From the NCBI GenBank assembly GCA_034926225.1, contig JAYFRF010000005.1, forward strand, positions 188,884 to 252,883: a DNA stretch of 64,000 nt, in the 5' to 3' direction. Source of the DNA: Clostridiaceae bacterium (GTDB lineage: Bacteria; Bacillota; Clostridia; Oscillospirales; QAMX01). Positions 11,703 to 49,534 of this stretch are shown piece after piece (position 1 is the stretch's first letter; every line of letters starts with the position of its first letter). The notes under the pieces are model-generated. The model was not told where the DNA came from and made no database searches. It worked only from the letters and a program-made list of their open reading frames with translations. Both the position numbers and the translations under genes were made by a program.

Positions 11703-13046
11703 ATGAAAAAACTGCTGTCTGTTCTGCTTGTATTGTTGCTCCTGACGCTGCCGGTAGTCACCACTACAGTGGCGACAGCCACTGCCGCGGCGACTGATCT
11801 CGAGGCGTTTTGGACCGCGCAGGAATGGGCTGTTCTGCGCCTGACCAATATAGAACGTATGAATCGCAACCTGGCGCCGCTCACCTTCACCGCCGATGCG
11901 CTCAACGCCGCCCGGATCCGCTGCGGGGAGCTGGAGTCCGTCGTAGGACATACCCGCCCGGATGGCCGCGATTGCTTCTCCGTGCTGACGGATCTCGATA
12001 TCGACGCCTCCTACGCCGGTGAAAACGTGGCGGCCGGCCAAAGCGACGCCTACGATGTCATGCAGGCCTGGATGGGAAGCGAAGGGCATCGCGCCAATAT
12101 CCTCAATGACGGCTTTTCCCATCTCGGCGCCGCTTATCTTCCCGGCTCTCTCGGAGAGTCTTATCGCTCCTACTGGACGCAGATTTTCTTCGACGACTAC
12201 TGCCGCTTCTCCTCACTCCGCCTCATTGACGCGGAGAACCTGGTCGTCACGCCCGGCACCTCCATCGACGACATGCGCGTTATCGCGGAGGCGGAATGCG
12301 CTGTCCATGGGAAATCGTATCTGCCTGTGATCTCCCAGATGTGCTTTGGTTATGACCCGGACGTTACAGGCGAACAAACCGTCACCGTCACATTCCGCAA
12401 CCTCTCCGCCACGTTCACCGTCGAGGTTCGCGAGGATGCCTCCACATCCACCCCTCCTGTGTCATCCTCCGACACCATTGCGGTTTTTCAACCCGTTTCG
12501 GATTACTATTATCTTTTTGACGATGTCTCCGACGGCGCGTGGTATTACGACGACGTCTATTTATCCGTCATTTACGGTCTGGTTCGGGGCGTTACCAGTG
12601 CGGAATTTAAGCCCGACGATGCCCTGACCGTCGCCCAGACCTTGATGATCGCCGCTCGTATCCGCAACCTCTATGACGGCGGCAGCGGCAATATTTCGCA
12701 GGAAGGCGCCACCTGGTACTCGGGTGCCGTCACTTACTGCGTCGAGCAGGGGATCATCGCCACGGATGCCTTCGCGGATTTTACGCGACCCGCCACCCGC
12801 GCGGAGGTCGCCGGTATCCTGGCACATACGCTGCCCGGTACCGAGCTGAACGCCATCCGCAAGATAGATTCCATATCCGACGTCTCGGCCGATGCGCCCT
12901 ATGCCGATGAAATTTTCTCCCTCTATCGCGCGGGCATCCTGATCGGCGATGAAACGGGTGCGTTCCACGGGAATCAGTCGATTCGACGCTGTGAAGCCGC
13001 CGCGGTTCTCGTCCGCTTAATCCTTCCGGCACAGCGTATCGGATAA
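11703..13046 (+). CDS. Secreted CAP (SCP/YkwD) domain protein with an Ig-like region and C-terminal SLH repeats
   Basis: Signal peptide MKKLLSVLLVLLLLTLP. CAP block LTNIERMNRNLAPL...GENVAAGQSDAYDVMQAWMGSEGHRANIL. SLH-like repeats FDDVSDGAWYYDDVYLSVIYGLVRG, FTRPATRAEVAGILA and IRRCEAAAVLVRL. The start is trimmed to 11703 (GGAGGGA SD). Confidence 0.8.
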   Translation: MKKLLSVLLVLLLLTLPVVTTTVATATAAATDLEAFWTAQEWAVLRLTNIERMNRNLAPLTFTADALNAARIRCGELESVVGHTRPDGRDCFSVLTDLDIDASYAGENVAAGQSDAYDVMQAWMGSEGHRANILNDGFSHLGAAYLPGSLGESYRSYWTQIFFDDYCRFSSLRLIDAENLVVTPGTSIDDMRVIAEAECAVHGKSYLPVISQMCFGYDPDVTGEQTVTVTFRNLSATFTVEVREDASTSTPPVSSSDTIAVFQPVSDYYYLFDDVSDGAWYYDDVYLSVIYGLVRGVTSAEFKPDDALTVAQTLMIAARIRNLYDGGSGNISQEGATWYSGAVTYCVEQGIIATDAFADFTRPATRAEVAGILAHTLPGTELNAIRKIDSISDVSADAPYADEIFSLYRAGILIGDETGAFHGNQSIRRCEAAAVLVRLILPAQRIG

Positions 13047-13065
13047 TTTTCCGTAAAAAAATAAA

Positions 13066-13112
13066 AAAAGGCGAAACTCACCGATATTTCGGCTTTGAGT
13101 TTCGCCTTTTTT
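13066..13112 (+). terminator. Rho-independent terminator
   Basis: GGCGAAACTCA...TGAGTTTCGCC stem followed by TTTTTT, with an A run upstream. Confidence 0.75.
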
Positions 13113-13179
13113 GGAACACTGTCGTCCGTTATCTCGTCTAATGGATATGGAATATTTATATTGGAAAGGATGGCTTCGT

Positions 13180-14421
13180 ATGAAGCATCGTACGCCTCGG
13201 CTCTTATCCCTTTTGCTGACCGCAGCTCTGATTTCAGGCCTCTTCGCCGCCTGTACGAATACTGTCACCCCCTCACAGACCTCTACGCAAACCTCCGCCA
13301 CGACTACCACGACCGCGACGGCTTCCTCTTCCTCCTCAACCCCCCATACAACACGCGTATTTCCCGCGTCCTCCGTACCCACGCCTGCCACGTCAAAACA
13401 GACCGGATCGTCAAGGCCCGCGGTGACTTCGCAGACATCCGGTACATCCTCTGCCACGTCTGAAACGACCACCACTTCGCCGACCGATTATAACGCGGTT
13501 TTTGCTGAGTACGGCATCGAGCCTGCCGATGAGCTGATCCCTTGGGCATGCTATTTTGTGGATAACTTCCCGGTCGGGGAATGCGATGTCCGCTTCGTCA
13601 ATCTGGCGGACGGCGACAACCCTGAAATGCTCGTGACACACTTCCAATACGACGAAAACGGCCTCCTTATCGTCGATCTCTATCTATGTGTGATGGACAG
13701 CCGCGGCGTTATAGCAGCCACATGGTCCTACCGGCTCGAGGACAACAGCCGCGCACAATACTGCGCCGCATATCTCATTGACTTCGACGGCGATCCGGCG
13801 CTCTTAATGTACTACCGCCTGACACTCAAGGGTACCACCACGGAACGATATGACATCTACCGCTTCGATGAGGACGGTAACCGGATCATGGTCAGCGCAG
13901 AGGAATCCTCGTTCCCCGATTCGCAGGTCTCCGATACCGCGCTGTTTAAGGAAAACTATGCGCCGCGTCTGAAAAACGCTATTGTCGTCATCAACTTCCC
14001 CTCCCCGTGGCACGACGCCGTGTATTATGATGAAAGCCTGCCCGTGCATGCGTTTGCCAAGCAGAATACGCCCATCAATCAGCTCCGCCGTGAGGAGGAT
14101 AACTTTATCGCCATAACCTCCTACGCCATCGACGAGAAAACCTCCGCCGTTTCCATTAAGGGTTATACGCTGCGTTATGCCGGCGGAAAAGATACGTTTG
14201 GGCGCTTTGTTTACGACGCTACGGCGATCATAGAGTTTACCTGCCCGGGCGATACCGGCATAACCTATAAAACCGAAACCGGAGAACAGGCCTCCGTACC
14301 GCTTTTAAGCTTCCTCCAAAACAATCTCTCCGCCTTTGGTACCGTCATCTACGACGGCGCACAGCCTGTTTACCGGTTCCGGACGCTTCACGGTGAAATC
14401 GTCAGTATAACAGAGCCGTAA
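13180..14421 (+). CDS. Lipoprotein of unknown function with a Ser/Thr-rich linker
   Basis: Lipobox LFAAC after MKHRTPRLLSLLLTAALISG. A long S/T tract follows (TSTQTSATTTTTATASSSSSTP...). The remainder has no motif I recognise. The start is trimmed to 13180. Confidence 0.7.
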   Translation: MKHRTPRLLSLLLTAALISGLFAACTNTVTPSQTSTQTSATTTTTATASSSSSTPHTTRVFPASSVPTPATSKQTGSSRPAVTSQTSGTSSATSETTTTSPTDYNAVFAEYGIEPADELIPWACYFVDNFPVGECDVRFVNLADGDNPEMLVTHFQYDENGLLIVDLYLCVMDSRGVIAATWSYRLEDNSRAQYCAAYLIDFDGDPALLMYYRLTLKGTTTERYDIYRFDEDGNRIMVSAEESSFPDSQVSDTALFKENYAPRLKNAIVVINFPSPWHDAVYYDESLPVHAFAKQNTPINQLRREEDNFIAITSYAIDEKTSAVSIKGYTLRYAGGKDTFGRFVYDATAIIEFTCPGDTGITYKTETGEQASVPLLSFLQNNLSAFGTVIYDGAQPVYRFRTLHGEIVSITEP

Positions 14422-44160: not shown

Positions 44161-44925
44161 ATGTCGTTACCTGATTCCGGTGAACGGTCCGTCCTTGAGG
44201 GCCGGCACGCCGTTTCCGAAGCTCTTGCCGCGCGCAGGCTGATCGATAAAATCTATCTCCTTAAAAACGCGCCCGATGATTCCACTCTTTCCTCCATCCG
44301 CACCCGCGCGCAGGCGGCCGGCATCCCCGTCGTCGAGGTCGACCGGTGCAAGCTTGATTCTATGAGCCAGACCGGCGCGCATCAGGGTGTGATCGCGGCT
44401 GTCCCTGCGGTGGACTACGCAAGCGTCGAGGATATCCTCCGCGCGGCCGACGCGGACAGTGCGCCCGCCCTGATCGTTCTGTGCGACGGACTATCCGATC
44501 CGCATAACCTCGGCGCCATCGTCCGTACGGCGGGTGCCGCCGGCGCGCATGGCGTCATCATCCCTAAGCATCGCAGTGTTTCTCTGACCGCGGCCTGTGC
44601 CAAAGCCGCCGCCGGCGCGCTGGAGCATGTGCCCGTCGCCCGCGTCACAAATCTTGCGGAAACGATCGTCACGCTGCAAAAGCATGGTATCTGGGTCTTC
44701 GGCACCGCCGGAGAAGCGGCAACTTCTTTATATGACGCCGACTTCGACCGCCCCGCGGCGATCGTCATCGGCAACGAGGGCAGCGGCCTTTCGCGTCTGG
44801 TACGCGAACGCTGCGACTACCTCTTAAGCATTCCGATGAAAGGCGCGGTGCCTTCCCTAAACGCGTCCGCCGCCGCCGCCGTTGTGTTATTTGAAGCCGT
44901 CCGCCGTCGCTTGGGACGCGTATAA
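44161..44925 (+). CDS. rlmB: 23S rRNA (guanosine-2'-O)-methyltransferase RlmB (SpoU/TrmH family)
   Basis: SpoU_sub_bind N-domain, DGLSDPHNLGAIVRTA, GNEGSGLS and IPM.G...SLN.S.AAA. Confidence 0.88.
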   Translation: MSLPDSGERSVLEGRHAVSEALAARRLIDKIYLLKNAPDDSTLSSIRTRAQAAGIPVVEVDRCKLDSMSQTGAHQGVIAAVPAVDYASVEDILRAADADSAPALIVLCDGLSDPHNLGAIVRTAGAAGAHGVIIPKHRSVSLTAACAKAAAGALEHVPVARVTNLAETIVTLQKHGIWVFGTAGEAATSLYDADFDRPAAIVIGNEGSGLSRLVRERCDYLLSIPMKGAVPSLNASAAAAVVLFEAVRRRLGRV

Positions 44926-44958: not shown

Positions 44959-47223
44959 ATGCGGGAAAACGATCCCGGAAAAACCGGTTTCCCGGAGCGG
45001 CCTTCGATTCCGCCGTCCGTACAGGACGATCGGGAGCTTGATGAGATCATGGAGCTTCTCGGCGATGCCGATCTCACCTCCGACGAGGAATCCGCGTCTC
45101 TCTCCGACAGTAATTTTGTATTCGATGATATTCTGAAGGAATACGAAGGGGATCCTTCCCCCGTTTCTGAAAAACCTTCCCCCACTCCGGCGCCTGTTGA
45201 CGAACCGACACAGCGTATTGTCAAGCCCGTTCTCCCCGCCGAACCGGCCCCCGCCGAGCCTGCGCCGACTGCAGCTCCCGCCCAGTCCGTACCCGCGTCG
45301 GCCGTACCCGTCGAATCGCCGGCCGCCCCCCATACAGACGAAGAAGAAGCCCCGGATGTCCGGCAGACGATTTCCGATCAGGTCTCGCAGGTCATGGACC
45401 AAAAAAAATCGCAGCCCCACCGCCTTCCAAAGCATGTCGCCAAAAACAGCGCGGTTCAGGTTGCCGATGAGTATGAAGAGGTGCCCCCAAAGCCTGACGA
45501 AACCACCGCAAGTTCCCCGGCGCCGACCGGCCCCGCATGCAGCGACGACCTGCGCAGCTTCCGCGGACTGACTCCCGCCGATGCGCTCGCTAAGGCGAAA
45601 AGCGCCGTCCGGTACTATCGCTGGCGCAGCTTTGTGACACTCCTTCTATCGCTGCTTTCCGCCTACGTCACCGCCGCGCCTACCTACGGGCTGCCGCTGC
45701 CGTCGTTTGTATCCTATGTCAAGCTGCCGTTCGTCTATCTGTTCATCCTCAACGCTATTCAGATCGGCGCGATGTTTTTATGCGTTTCGCTTCTTGCCGA
45801 CGGTCTGCGCATGCTGTTCCGCCGGAAGTTTAAGGCGGAAACGCTGCTGTTTTTCCCCTGCCTGATCAATTTGCTCTATACCATGCAGATCATGGTCTCC
45901 CCGACCTCCGGCGGGTATCTCCCCTATCACCCCGTCGTGATCCTGTCCCTGTTCTTCGGTATGCTGACGCGCCTGCTGCGCTACGAAAATGTCGTGCGCA
46001 CCTGCCGCGCGCTGACACTCGGCTCCGGTAAATACGCCGCTGTCAACGGCATCCATACCGCCGACGGACATGTCCGTACCGTTTATAAACAGGAACCGGC
46101 GGGCCTTGAACGCCGCGTGATGGATCGTCTTTGGGATGAGGACCGCGTCGAGCGTTTCCTTTCCTACTACTCTCCCTTCGCGCTCGTCCTCACCGCTGTT
46201 TTCGCTGCCATCGCCGCCCTCTCCGGCTCCGGCACGGTCAGCTTCCTCTGGTGCTGGTCAGCACTCCTGTCTGTTTCTCTGCCCGGCGGTCTGCTCGTCG
46301 CTTGTGTGATGCCCTCCTCGTCCGTTTCCGGCAGGCTTGCCCATACCGGCACGATCCTCGCGGGGCCTCGCGCGCCTGTTCTGTTAAACGATACCGAATC
46401 GGTCATCCTGCAGGAACGCGATGTCTTCCCGACAAAGATGATTTCGTTCTCCCCTGTCAGGGTTTTCTCCGGCTTTACTCCCGAAAAGGTGGACCTCTGT
46501 ACGCTCGCCGTTCTCAAAGCCTCCGGCAGCGGCTTATATCACGCCCTTGCGGTCTCCCTCTCCCGCGTACCGATGAACATGCCGCTGATGGAAAACTTTG
46601 AATTCTACGAAACCGGCGGTATGGGCGCGTTCGTCAACTCCGACCGTATCCTCGTCGGCACCGCGAACTTCATCCTCCGCTCCGGAGTCCGGATCCCGGA
46701 GGGGATCAACCTGAAAAACGGCGTCTTTGTGTCGATCAACATGCAGTTTGCCGGGTTGTATCCCGTAAAATATGACGTACAGCCCTCCGTCCGCCGCGCG
46801 CTGACCTATCTGACGCGCCGGCATCTGACCCCGATTCTCGCCGTGCGTGATTTTAGTATCACCCCTCAGCTCGTTGAGGCCAAATTTAAGATTCCCCCGG
46901 ACTCCCTTGGCTTCCCCGACTTAGGGGAGCGCATCGCCTACTCCGGCATGCGCGACGGGCTGGACGACGAGCCGATCGCGGCACTCGCGGTGGATTCCGC
47001 CGTGAATTTCTCCGACGCCGTCGCTTCCGGCAAGCGCGTCTTCGCCGCCACACGCGTCAATCTCGTGATCGGTCTTATCGCGGCAATCCTCGGCGTCGGT
47101 TTGAATTTCTTCCTCCTCTTTACGCGCAGCGCGGCCTCTATTACGCCGATCAACGTCCTCTATTACACCTGTCTATGGTTTGTCCCGGCTCTTCTGGTTT
47201 CTTTTGCCGCAAATCGTCGTTAA
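44959..47223 (+). CDS. Polytopic membrane protein collinear with P1B-type ATPases but lacking the catalytic motifs; disordered acidic/Pro-rich N-terminus
   Basis: See findings. FEFYETGGMGAFVNSDRILVGTANFIL and GVFVSINMQFAGLYPVKYDVQPSVRRALTYLTRRHLTPILAVRDFSITPQL align to the P-type ATPase N/P domains. DKTGT, TGD and GDGxND are replaced. The start is trimmed to the ATG at 44959 (AAGGTGG SD). Confidence 0.6.
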   Translation: MRENDPGKTGFPERPSIPPSVQDDRELDEIMELLGDADLTSDEESASLSDSNFVFDDILKEYEGDPSPVSEKPSPTPAPVDEPTQRIVKPVLPAEPAPAEPAPTAAPAQSVPASAVPVESPAAPHTDEEEAPDVRQTISDQVSQVMDQKKSQPHRLPKHVAKNSAVQVADEYEEVPPKPDETTASSPAPTGPACSDDLRSFRGLTPADALAKAKSAVRYYRWRSFVTLLLSLLSAYVTAAPTYGLPLPSFVSYVKLPFVYLFILNAIQIGAMFLCVSLLADGLRMLFRRKFKAETLLFFPCLINLLYTMQIMVSPTSGGYLPYHPVVILSLFFGMLTRLLRYENVVRTCRALTLGSGKYAAVNGIHTADGHVRTVYKQEPAGLERRVMDRLWDEDRVERFLSYYSPFALVLTAVFAAIAALSGSGTVSFLWCWSALLSVSLPGGLLVACVMPSSSVSGRLAHTGTILAGPRAPVLLNDTESVILQERDVFPTKMISFSPVRVFSGFTPEKVDLCTLAVLKASGSGLYHALAVSLSRVPMNMPLMENFEFYETGGMGAFVNSDRILVGTANFILRSGVRIPEGINLKNGVFVSINMQFAGLYPVKYDVQPSVRRALTYLTRRHLTPILAVRDFSITPQLVEAKFKIPPDSLGFPDLGERIAYSGMRDGLDDEPIAALAVDSAVNFSDAVASGKRVFAATRVNLVIGLIAAILGVGLNFFLLFTRSAASITPINVLYYTCLWFVPALLVSFAANRR

Positions 47224-47270: not shown

Positions 47271-47299
47271 TTGCATTTAAGCCTTCAATCGAGTATAAT
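47271..47299 (+). promoter_or_regulatory. Sigma-A promoter for the EF-G paralogue
   Basis: TTGCAT, a 17-nt spacer, then TATAAT. Confidence 0.6.
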
Positions 47300-47350
47300 A
47301 TTACTTAATGCGGATCATTTCATTTTTTAACGCCATAAAGGAGTATGAAC

Positions 47351-49414
47351 ATGGGGTACACACCGGATAAGATCAGAAACGTTACATTGCTCGGCCATGG
47401 CGGCGACGGCAAGACCTCTCTCGCCGAAAGCCTTCTCTTTCTGACGAAGGGTACGGACCGCTTAGGGAAGGTCACCGACGGCAATACCGTCTGCGATTAC
47501 GATCCCGAGGAAATCCGTCGCCAGTTCACCATCGGCGCCTCCCTCGCGCCTGTGGAATATAATGGCTTTAAATTAAACTTTATCGATACCCCCGGATTTT
47601 TCGATTTCGCCGGTGAAATTATGCAGGCTCTCCGCGTTACCGAAACCGGTTTGATCTTTGCAACCGCCAAATCCGGCGTCGCGGTCGGTACCGAAAAGAG
47701 CTGGAAGTATTGCGTCGATCGCAATCTTTCCCGTATGTTCTATATCTCCAAACTCGATGAAGAGCATGCCGATTTCACGCGCGTTGCCGATCAGCTCCGC
47801 TCTCAGTTCGGCTCCTCCGTCTGCCCCATCACCTTCCCCGTGATGAACGGTACCAAGGTCGACTGCATCGTTGACGTCGTGAAGAATAAGGCTTATAAGA
47901 CCGACGGCGGAAAGCTTACCGAGACGGCTGTTCCCGCCTCCGCCGCTTCCGTTATGGAAGATTACCGCGCCCAGCTTTCCGAAGCCATCGCCGAAACCGA
48001 CGACGATCTGATGGAGAAGTTCTTCGCCGAGGAACCCTTCACGGAAGAAGAATTCCTTAAGGGCGTCAAGGCCGCCGTTAAGACCGGCGCCCTCGCACCC
48101 ATCTTCTGTGGTGCCGCGACGACCGGCGACGGTACCCTCCCGCTTTTACAGAGTATCATCGATTATGCGCCTTCCCCTCTCGACGCACCCGCCCAGCTCA
48201 CCGCTGACGGCGACGAGGTTGCCGCCGATCCCGGTGCGCCGACCTGCGCCTTCGTCTTCAAAACAGTCACCGACCAGTATGGCCGTTTCTCCTTCTTCCG
48301 CGTCATGGCCGGCAAGGTCTCCGCGGATATGTCCCTTACCAATGCCCGTACCGGTGAGCCGGAAAAGATCGGCCACATCTACATGGTTCGCGGCAAGAAG
48401 AACATCGAGGTAACCGAAATCGGTCTCGGCGACATCGGCGCCGTTTCCAAACTCGTCAACACCAAGACCAACGATACCCTCTGCGCGCCCGGCCGTGTTG
48501 TGTCCCTTGCGCCGATCATCTTTATGGAACCCTGCTACAAGCAGGCCATTAAGCCTAAAGTCAAGGGCGGCGAAGAAAAAATCGCTTCCGGCCTTACGAA
48601 GCTTCGCGACGAGGATCAGACGTTTGAAGCTTATAACGATCCCGAGACGCATGAATACATCATCGCTGGCGCCGGCGACATGCACTTAGACGTCCTCTGC
48701 TCCAAGCTCAAGAGCAAATTCGGCGTTGAGCCGGAGCTTTTTGCCCCGCGTGTCGCGTATCGCGAGAAGATTCGCAAGAAGGTCCAGGCCGAAGGCAAGC
48801 ATAAGAAACAGTCCGGCGGCCATGGCCAGTACGGTCACGTCAAGATCGAGTTCGAGCCCTGCGACAGCACCGAAATGGTCTTTGAGGAACGCGTATTCGG
48901 TGGAAGCGTGCCGAAGAACTTCTTCCCCGCCGTAGAAAAGGGCCTGCGCGACTGCATGGATCGCGGCTTGCTCGCGGGTTACCCCGTCGTGAACCTCAAA
49001 GCCACCCTCTTCGACGGTTCCTACCACGACGTTGACTCCAACGAGCTTTCCTTCAAGATGGCTGCCCGCCTCGCGTTCAAGGACGGCTTCCCGAAGGCGA
49101 ATCCCGTTATCATGGAGCCGATCGGCTCGCTGAAGGTCTTCGTACCGGACGCGAACATGGGCGATATCATTTCCGACATGAACAAGCGCCGCGGTCGTGT
49201 CATGGGTATGACCCCCACCGAAGACGGCTTACAGATGATCGAAGCCGAAGTTCCGATGGCAGAAATGGCTTCCTACGCGATCGACCTGCGTTCGATTTCC
49301 CAAGGGCGCGGCAGATTCGTTCTGAAATTCGAGCGCTACGAGGACGCCCCGCCGATGGTTCAGCAGAAGGTTATCGACGACGCCAAGGCCACGATGGAAG
49401 AGGACGACGAATAA
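47351..49414 (+). CDS. Elongation factor G paralogue (EF-G-like translational GTPase with divergent G motifs)
   Basis: Five-domain EF-G architecture (HKKQSGGHGQYGHV and C-terminal EPIGSLKVFVP...YAIDLRSISQGRGRF). The G motifs are GHGGDGKTS, DTPGF and SKLD. The ATG at 47345 is an alternative start. Confidence 0.85.
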   Translation: MGYTPDKIRNVTLLGHGGDGKTSLAESLLFLTKGTDRLGKVTDGNTVCDYDPEEIRRQFTIGASLAPVEYNGFKLNFIDTPGFFDFAGEIMQALRVTETGLIFATAKSGVAVGTEKSWKYCVDRNLSRMFYISKLDEEHADFTRVADQLRSQFGSSVCPITFPVMNGTKVDCIVDVVKNKAYKTDGGKLTETAVPASAASVMEDYRAQLSEAIAETDDDLMEKFFAEEPFTEEEFLKGVKAAVKTGALAPIFCGAATTGDGTLPLLQSIIDYAPSPLDAPAQLTADGDEVAADPGAPTCAFVFKTVTDQYGRFSFFRVMAGKVSADMSLTNARTGEPEKIGHIYMVRGKKNIEVTEIGLGDIGAVSKLVNTKTNDTLCAPGRVVSLAPIIFMEPCYKQAIKPKVKGGEEKIASGLTKLRDEDQTFEAYNDPETHEYIIAGAGDMHLDVLCSKLKSKFGVEPELFAPRVAYREKIRKKVQAEGKHKKQSGGHGQYGHVKIEFEPCDSTEMVFEERVFGGSVPKNFFPAVEKGLRDCMDRGLLAGYPVVNLKATLFDGSYHDVDSNELSFKMAARLAFKDGFPKANPVIMEPIGSLKVFVPDANMGDIISDMNKRRGRVMGMTPTEDGLQMIEAEVPMAEMASYAIDLRSISQGRGRFVLKFERYEDAPPMVQQKVIDDAKATMEEDDE

Positions 49415-49434: not shown

Positions 49435-49464
49435 GGCCGCCGGATCGCAGACGATCCGGCGGCC
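49435..49464 (+). terminator. Terminator hairpin after the EF-G paralogue
   Basis: GGCCGCCGGATCG-CAGA-CGATCCGGCGGCC, then ATTTAT. Confidence 0.65.
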
Positions 49465-49480
49465 ATTTATACGTTTCTGT

Positions 49481-49518
49481 CAAAAAAGGCGGCTGCCAGT
49501 TCTTTTCCTGCAGCCGCC
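49481..49518 (-). terminator. Rho-independent terminator after the sugar-binding lipoprotein gene
   Basis: On the minus strand: GGCGGCTGC-loop-GCAGCCGCC followed by TTTTTTG. Confidence 0.8.
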
Positions 49519-49534
49519 TTGCCGTTATAAGGAG

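Follow-up and report, generated by a model that had tools for sequence, protein, structure and literature searches.

The gene at 47351–49414 on the plus strand of a 64 kb stretch of contig JAYFRF010000005.1 (the window) encodes an EF-G2: a translation elongation factor G (EF-G) that falls in the Clostridia sub-group of subfamily EFG II and comes from an uncultured Oscillospiraceae-type bacterium. We hold the family membership with very high confidence. The protein keeps the residues that bind GTP and magnesium and has lost the apparatus by which the ribosome activates hydrolysis, including the catalytic histidine of switch II. Taken as a whole, the data are on balance best explained by an EF-G2 serving in an auxiliary capacity as a slow, low-energy translocase or modulator of elongation. 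An earlier note on this DNA, made from the sequence alone, had singled out the gene for its missing histidine and its altered G4 motif; the observation is confirmed here, and the interpretation placed on it is upheld in part only.

Motifs and domain structure

Motif positions (table 1) were obtained by in-place translation, and their canonical counterparts from a HMMER alignment to Staphylococcus aureus EF-G, in which the motifs of the window's protein lie opposite AHIDAGKTT, DRGITIT, DTPGHVDF and NKMD. G1 (GHGGDGKTS), G3 (DTPGFFDF) and G4 (SKLD) all read as the earlier note had them. Its statement that domains II–V are intact is borne out as well, with all five EF-G Pfam domains (G with its G' insert, II, III, IV and V) found above their gathering cut-offs in the 687-residue protein. 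Measured against canonical EF-G, the four motifs AHIDAGKT, RGITI, DTPGH and NKMD are all altered. Nothing has been lost among the nucleotide-binding residues: the P-loop GxxxxGKT, the switch-I threonine, DxxG and, in G4, Lys and Asp are all present. The elements of ribosome-activated hydrolysis have all been replaced, namely the switch-II histidine, the isoleucines of the P-loop/switch-I ‘hydrophobic gate’ and, at the monovalent-cation site, Asp and Gly; the same replacements are found throughout the EF-G2 family. The description of the NKxD motif as altered is right as to the Asn, which is lost, but the motif still has its Lys and its guanine-specifying Asp.

Beyond the G motifs, the domain IV tip loops, which probe the A site, match the canonical translocase sequences (SGGHGQYGHV and SYHDVDS), and the acidic helix in G' is conserved. 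The AlphaFold model (pLDDT 92.3) superimposes on active, ribosome-bound E. coli EF-G (PDB 7n2v) with a TM-score of 0.94 and a root-mean-square deviation of 2.3 Å, and TM-scores across EF-G and EF-G2 structures range from 0.81 to 0.94. The protein thus shares with canonical EF-G (EFG I, fusA; S. aureus 2XEX and E. coli 7N2V) the five-domain fold, the tip loops and the acidic G' helix, and differs from it in the four G motifs and in the location of the gene, which for the canonical factor is the str operon.

Assignment to subfamily EFG II

The family comparison was made by hidden Markov model (HMM) scores and diagnostic residues, in place of a rooted phylogeny with Tet, RF3, LepA and BipA outgroups. 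The NCBIfam model NF009381 (‘elongation factor G’, PRK12740.1-5) matched at 862.4 bits against a cut-off of 583, over residues 5–685 of the protein and positions 4–690 of the 692 in the profile. TIGR00484, the equivalog model for canonical EF-G (EFG I), gave 595 bits, below its cut-off of 659.4, in agreement with the earlier view that this is not a canonical EF-G. Two models for particular EF-G2 groups also stayed below their cut-offs: the Bacteroides-type NF058620 (590 bits in two stretches; cut-off 1000) and the actinobacterial NF009377 (542.5 bits; cut-off 890). For the RF3, BipA and LepA models, the protein scored far under the cut-offs.

The EFG II subfamily was defined by Margus et al. 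2011 (PMC3150367), who gave five positions that separate EFG I from EFG II (1WDT numbering; EFG I/EFG II residues 16 A/G, 25 T/L, 291 I/T, 333 A/G and 352 G/[KR]) and a switch-I pattern, RxxSI, for the Clostridia sub-group. The window's protein is in the EFG II state at all five (G16, L25, T291, G333 and K352) and also has L264, while two canonical representatives (P0238 and P0264) carry A; L or T; V or I; A; and G, respectively. Its switch I, RRQFTI, fits the Clostridia pattern with Thr replacing Ser. We conclude that the protein is typical of the EFG II/EF-G2 family, which was described in 2011 and is present in both NCBIfam and the PDB, and is not the unusual single protein that the missing histidine had suggested.

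In a survey of 305 genomes, a lone EFG gene was always EFG I (Margus et al. 2011, PMC3150367). For this reason, and since the protein does not reach the TIGR00484 equivalog cut-off, a canonical fusA in a str operon is expected beside this EF-G2 gene in the source genome. No translational GTPase other than EF-G2 is encoded in the 64 kb window.

Loss of the switch-II histidine is a family trait

A HMMER search of 1.84 billion cluster representatives (50% identity) was used to place the motif changes in a wider setting, and the 150 best matches were examined. A fully canonical AHIDAGKTT/DTPGHVDF pair was found in only two, and the canonical representatives came from unrelated taxa, for example Dictyoglomus. 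Among the other 148, the non-canonical set, the switch-II histidine is missing in approximately 145, and its position is held most often by Tyr (75) or Phe (32), then by Asp (9), Leu (8), Ser (6) or Asn (4), and rarely by His. The residues that contact nucleotide and magnesium are kept in the same set: K21 in 145, T/S22 in 146, D79 in 145, G82 in 145, S/T60 in 144 and the G4 Asp (D136) in 127. The family as a whole has lost the apparatus of activation: the switch-II His, Ile and Asp of the P-loop, and Gly and Ile of switch I.

All three EF-G2 proteins of solved structure lack the histidine, as read from their PDB sequences: Thermus EF-G-2 (1WDT; G1 GHAGSGKTT, G3 DAPGYGDF, G4 TKLD), Bacteroides EF-G2 (7UVP; GSSGSGKTT, DCPGSDDF, NQLD) and Mycobacterium smegmatis EF-G2 (MsmEF-G2) (9K0Z; GPSGGGKTT, DTPGYADF, TKLD). 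A 2026 preprint on MsmEF-G2 describes the corresponding changes (His88 to Tyr98, NKMD to TKLD and AHIDA to GPSGG) and reports that H88Y in EF-G1 nearly abolishes its GTPase. Loss of the switch-II histidine is therefore a hallmark of the EF-G2 family, one already described in the literature.

Conservation and clade-specific residues

Closer to the protein, the 120 nearest database homologues (55–92% identity) come from Oscillospiraceae and other Clostridia, both metagenome-assembled genomes (MAGs) and isolates. D[TA]PG[YF][FY]DF is present in all 120, with Tyr or Phe at the position of the catalytic histidine, and GHG[GS][DE]GKTS in nearly all; their switch I is mostly [KR]RQ[IF]SI. At least 114 of the 121 sequences in the alignment (the protein plus these homologues) have the Ser of G4, as SKxD. 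Across the 120 homologues, 44 of 149 columns of the G-domain core are invariant, similar to domains II–V. Compared with a 92%-identical homologue, the gene has a ratio of nonsynonymous to synonymous substitution rates (dN/dS) of 0.06, and its G domain one of 0.075. Given this conservation in 120 homologues and the dN/dS of 0.06, the motifs are neither chance nor sequencing error. The same ratio led us to reject a pseudogene: the product is a functional protein under strong purifying selection, not a decaying copy.

Two residues set the clade apart. Ser at the first position of G4 occurs in only 15 of the 148 wider non-canonical representatives, where Asn (116) prevails and Thr is found in 11. 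An acidic residue at position 19, directly before GKT, is present (Asp or Glu) in approximately 115 of the 121 close sequences and in six of the 148 wider ones. Judged from these alignments, the G4 Ser and acidic residue 19 are specific to the clade of the window's protein. Position 19 falls one position after the cation-site Asp of canonical EF-G.

Comparison with characterized EF-G2 proteins

Among the closest known parallels is EF-G-2 of Thermus thermophilus (TTHA1498; 1WDT/2DY1), likewise an EFG II protein of five domains and of similar size (665 versus 687 residues), without the insertion of the Bacteroides type. Both have a G1 that begins with Gly, an aromatic residue for the catalytic His, a hydroxyl residue for the G4 Asn and no cation-site Asp/Gly, and they have the EFG II diagnostic residues in common; a Foldseek comparison gave TM-scores of 0.81–0.84 at 35% identity. 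The Thermus protein differs in having Tyr rather than Phe at the His position, Thr rather than Ser in G4 and no acidic residue before GKT, and it comes from another phylum. Although it lacks the His and the cation-site Asp/Gly, it binds GTP-Mg, with which this TKLD protein was crystallized, and supports poly(Phe) synthesis. It translocates, and it is reported to hydrolyse GTP both in a ribosome-dependent manner and with a higher intrinsic activity.

EF-G2 of Bacteroides thetaiotaomicron (BT2167, fusA2; 7UVP/8DMF) is again an EFG II protein lacking the switch-II histidine and belongs to a gut anaerobe, in which it is an accessory factor beside canonical EF-G1. It differs in its G2 (YGYSV) and G4 (NQLD), is 35% identical to the window's protein, and at 718 residues carries an extra segment in domain IV that the 687-residue protein does not have. 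Papers that cite the original work describe slow translocation without GTP hydrolysis by this factor, its induction by carbon limitation and a requirement for it in gut colonization.

MsmEF-G2 (9K0Z/9K10), 34% identical, has Tyr for the His where the window's protein has Phe, a hydroxyl residue for the G4 Asn and a Gly-rich P-loop. It is non-essential and encoded outside the str operon, and by the published account it shows no ribosome-dependent GTPase, makes no contacts of the translocation type and has no recycling activity. Literature on the Clostridioides difficile gene called ‘fusA2’ was set aside, as the name there denotes the EF-G targeted by argyrin and the work is uninformative on EFG II function.

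Proposed function and alternatives

We propose that the protein would bind GTP and dock into the factor-binding site of the ribosome as EF-G does, where it would act on the A-site tRNA–mRNA and promote or stabilize the translocated state. It would do so without the fast, His-dependent GTP hydrolysis that the sarcin-ricin loop triggers, and would thus assist in translocation, slowly and at low energy cost, or modulate elongation, probably when nutrients are limiting. The proposal takes Bacteroides EF-G2 as its precedent, and Thermus EF-G-2 is in line with it. By this analogy, we rate the specific role of slow translocase for the window's protein as an even call.

The expectation of poor GTP hydrolysis, already voiced in the earlier note, agrees with the absence of the catalytic His and of the canonical residues at two positions in the P-loop (Ile and Asp) and two in switch I (Gly and Ile); by analogy it is also in keeping with the EF-G2 proteins of M. 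smegmatis, which lacks ribosome-dependent GTPase, and of B. thetaiotaomicron, for which citing papers describe translocation without hydrolysis. The same note had gone on to suggest a ‘different nucleotide regime’ and a role in ribosome protection, rescue or hibernation ‘rather than in translocation’. A change in base specificity is improbable: G4 still has its Lys and Asp, and GTP is bound by a TKLD homologue, as its crystals with GTP-Mg attest. A function away from translocation has a precedent in the ribosome-trapping stress factor MsmEF-G2, but to exclude translocation is too strong: Thermus EF-G-2, with motifs of the same kind, supports poly(Phe) synthesis, Bacteroides EF-G2 is a translocase, and the domain IV tip loops of the window's protein are canonical.

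Several points weigh against the slow-translocase proposal. The three characterized EF-G2 proteins disagree with one another, with Thermus hydrolysing GTP, Bacteroides translocating without doing so and Mycobacterium trapping ribosomes, and each is only approximately 35% identical to the window's protein. In 2023, Han et al. reportedly blamed the loss of GTPase in Bacteroides EF-G2 on a 26-residue insertion. That insertion is missing here (687 versus 718 residues; the alignment to 7UVP breaks at residue 513), and the protein fails the Bacteroides-type model NF058620.

MsmEF-G2 provides the model for the alternative that survives best, in which the protein would be a stress factor that binds the post-translocation, non-ratcheted 70S ribosome without GTP hydrolysis and slows or parks translation. 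The two proteins share the aromatic residue for His, the hydroxyl residue for the G4 Asn and a P-loop in which AHIDA has given way to a Gly-rich sequence, and MsmEF-G2, devoid of ribosome-dependent GTPase, is described as trapping the post-translocated ribosome. Its domain IV loops are reported to be displaced from the tRNA, however, whereas those of the window's protein are canonical; the actinobacterial EF-G2 model reached just 542 of the 890 bits of its cut-off, and two of the three characterized EF-G2 proteins translocate. We consider trapping rather unlikely, and favour the slow auxiliary translocase over it because of the canonical domain IV loops and the gut-type anaerobe in which the gene resides.

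Division of labour between EF-G paralogues is documented, and the protein could be imagined as an EF-G specialized for recycling with the ribosome recycling factor, like Borrelia EF-G2, mitochondrial EF-G2 or Pseudomonas EF-G1A. Mitochondrial EF-G2, however, reportedly retains the catalytic His along with the G motifs and ribosome-dependent GTPase; the Borrelia factor is described apart from the EFG II examples; and MsmEF-G2, which does belong to EFG II, has no recycling activity. With the EFG II diagnostic residues present in the window's protein, we rejected this reading as very improbable.

A ribosomal protection factor of the Tet(M)/Tet(O) kind, or another antibiotic-resistance factor, would also be an EF-G-like GTPase encoded outside the str operon, and matches to Tet proteins do exist in the PDB and NCBIfam. 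They are poor, at 273.5 bits for NF012153 (tet_protect; cut-off 775) and 169 bits for the Tet(M)/(W) model (cut-off 1100); the protein has a full G' insert and domain IV loops of the EF-G type, and its gene sits in chromosomal synteny conserved across many species, without a mobile-element context. The HMM scores and the EF-G-type domain IV lead us to reject this scarcely credible reading, which the earlier note had put forward under ribosome protection. It is equally implausible that the protein is the sole or main translocase of the organism, which its complete EF-G architecture and its decent promoter-like and ribosome-binding sites would allow, but which the failed TIGR00484 cut-off and the absence of adjoining rpsL, rpsG or tuf oppose.

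The gene and its flanking signals

The gene lies in a plus-strand open reading frame (ORF) of 47345–49414 with two possible in-frame ATG codons (table 1). The start at 47351 is the better one, because the Shine–Dalgarno sequence AAAGGAG is spaced 7 nt from it and only 1 nt from 47345. This choice agrees with the nearest homologues, which are likewise 687 residues long, and with a separate gene call on an identical contig, which placed the start at the same position; the assembly of SRR27243473 contains a gene identical to this one.

Table 1. Features of the EF-G2 gene, its product and its upstream neighbours (window coordinates; aa, amino acids; CDS, coding sequence).
Feature	Position	Strand	Description
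rlmB	44161–44925	+	23S rRNA Gm2251 2'-O-methyltransferase; TIGR00186 233.7 bits, cut-off 160
Multi-pass membrane protein	44959–47223	+	approx. 754 aa; directly upstream of EF-G2 and conserved there
Promoter-like site	47271–47299	+	putative; inferred by eye from the sequence
Shine–Dalgarno AAAGGAG	47337–47343	+	7 nt 5' of ATG 47351; 1 nt 5' of in-frame ATG 47345
EF-G2 (EFG II subfamily) CDS	47351–49414	+	687 aa plus stop; five EF-G Pfam domains, NF009381, AlphaFold, dN/dS
G domain including G' insert	47369–48175	+	aa 7–275; PF00009 match
G1/P-loop GHGGDGKTS	47393–47419	+	Lys21 and Thr22 kept; Ile and Asp of AHIDAGKT replaced by Gly-Gly
G2/switch I RRQFTIG	47516–47536	+	canonical RGITI; Arg and Mg-coordinating Thr kept; Gly to Gln, Ile to Phe
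G3/switch II DTPGFFDF	47585–47608	+	Phe83 at the catalytic His position
G4 SKLD	47747–47758	+	Asn to Ser; Lys and guanine-specifying Asp kept
Motif CGAATTG	48107–48127	+	in-place translation
Domain IV	48746–49102	+	PF03764, 142 bits; 61 of 119 columns invariant in family
Domain IV tip loop HKKQSGGHGQYGHV	48800–48841	+	EF-G type
Domain IV tip loop DGSYHDVDS	49013–49039	+	EF-G type
Motif YAIDLRSISQGRGRF	49274–49318	+	in-place translation
G+C-rich hairpin	49435–49464		13 bp, 11 G-C; starts 20 nt past the EF-G2 stop

The gene had been credited with a consensus promoter and a terminator of its own. The promoter-like site has a perfect −10 hexamer (TATAAT, 47294–47299, 6/6) after a 17-nt spacer, but its −35 hexamer (TTGCAT, 47271–47276) matches at only 3/6 positions; a scan for consensus promoters did not call a plus-strand promoter for EF-G2, as the −35 hexamer fell under the threshold, and ‘consensus’ was an overstatement. 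Downstream, the 13-bp hairpin is strong, but on the plus strand it is followed by ATTTATACGTTT, with no clean T run, and the terminator scan called it on the minus strand only, with no plus-strand terminator. It is probably a terminator, with a weak T tail on the plus strand and a better one on the minus strand. A second G+C-rich hairpin (approx. 49487–49520) stands back to back with the first between the convergent genes for EF-G2 and a solute-binding protein; it has a clean T run serving the minus-strand gene, while the first looks usable in both directions. An Rfam scan of 43–54 kb of the window found neither a leader nor a riboswitch.

Genomic context and distribution

Around the gene lie rlmB and the genes of a membrane protein and of a sugar ABC transporter, and not rpsL, rpsG or tuf, which puts it outside the str operon, as had been noted from the sequence. 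To follow this context, we scanned one genome per GTDB species. Among the pattern matches, 536 relatives were confirmed, and the loci of the best 80 of the 536 were analysed. Identity peaked at 72–73%, which places the species of the window outside the genomes scanned. These 80 come from Oscillospiraceae and other Clostridia, and cultured carriers include Intestinimonas butyriciproducens, Flavonifractor, Oscillibacter ruminantium, Flintibacter faecis and Evtepia gabavorous.

Upstream sequence was sufficient at 59 loci, and 31 of them have the order rlmB, membrane protein (680–850 residues, no Pfam family) and EF-G2 on one strand; in these, EF-G2 identity falls to approximately 52%. When the ORFs lying within 5 kb of EF-G2 in the 80 genomes were clustered all against all, no other neighbour recurred. 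Gaps between the membrane protein and EF-G2 genes in the conserved loci are mostly 36–256 nt. In the window the gap is 128 nt and holds the promoter-like site, so the link may reflect inherited gene order rather than an operon.

The window's membrane protein (44959–47223) matched no Pfam family. Weak matches to P1B-type heavy-metal ATPases were seen (TIGR01525, E 1.6e-4; PF00122, E 0.4), and none of the DKTG, GDGxND and TGE motifs is present in 42 homologues. On this evidence the protein may be related to P-type ATPases but catalytically dead. Its N-terminal 230 residues are acidic and rich in Pro and Ala, and it has at least six hydrophobic segments.

Two further observations concern individual loci. 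In one Clostridia MAG (L051), prfC (RF3; GTP_EFTU and RF3_C domains; 12166–13782) follows EF-G2 by approximately 100 nt on the same strand, an arrangement seen in only one of the 80 loci. Genome bins labelled Eggerthellaceae, Bacteroidaceae and Mycoplasmatota (L014, L016 and L040) carry an EF-G2 of the Oscillospiraceae type (53–59% identity), and L014 and L016 also have the order rlmB, membrane protein, EF-G2; these contigs are probably mis-binned, or the bins mislabelled.

Implications

Annotation by the NCBI pipeline PGAP would name the protein plainly ‘elongation factor G’, which hides its divergence and accounts for the surprise that its motifs caused. EF-G2 proteins bear on whether translocation requires GTP hydrolysis and on the energy economy of gut bacteria. 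We suggest, tentatively and as a possibility that is somewhat doubtful at present, that the EF-G2 clade of Oscillospiraceae and other Clostridia, with its own signature of GHGG[DE]GKTS, D[TA]PG[YF]FDF and SKxD, is a hydrolysis-independent translocase that serves gut Firmicutes under energy limitation. The clade's EF-G2 might work jointly with the RlmB and the P-type-ATPase-like membrane protein encoded upstream. Cultured relatives such as Intestinimonas, Flavonifractor, Oscillibacter and Evtepia are reasonable test systems. If true, the suggestion would extend the principle of Bacteroides EF-G2 to the other dominant phylum of the gut, and would do so by a structural route of its own, there being no Bacteroides insertion.

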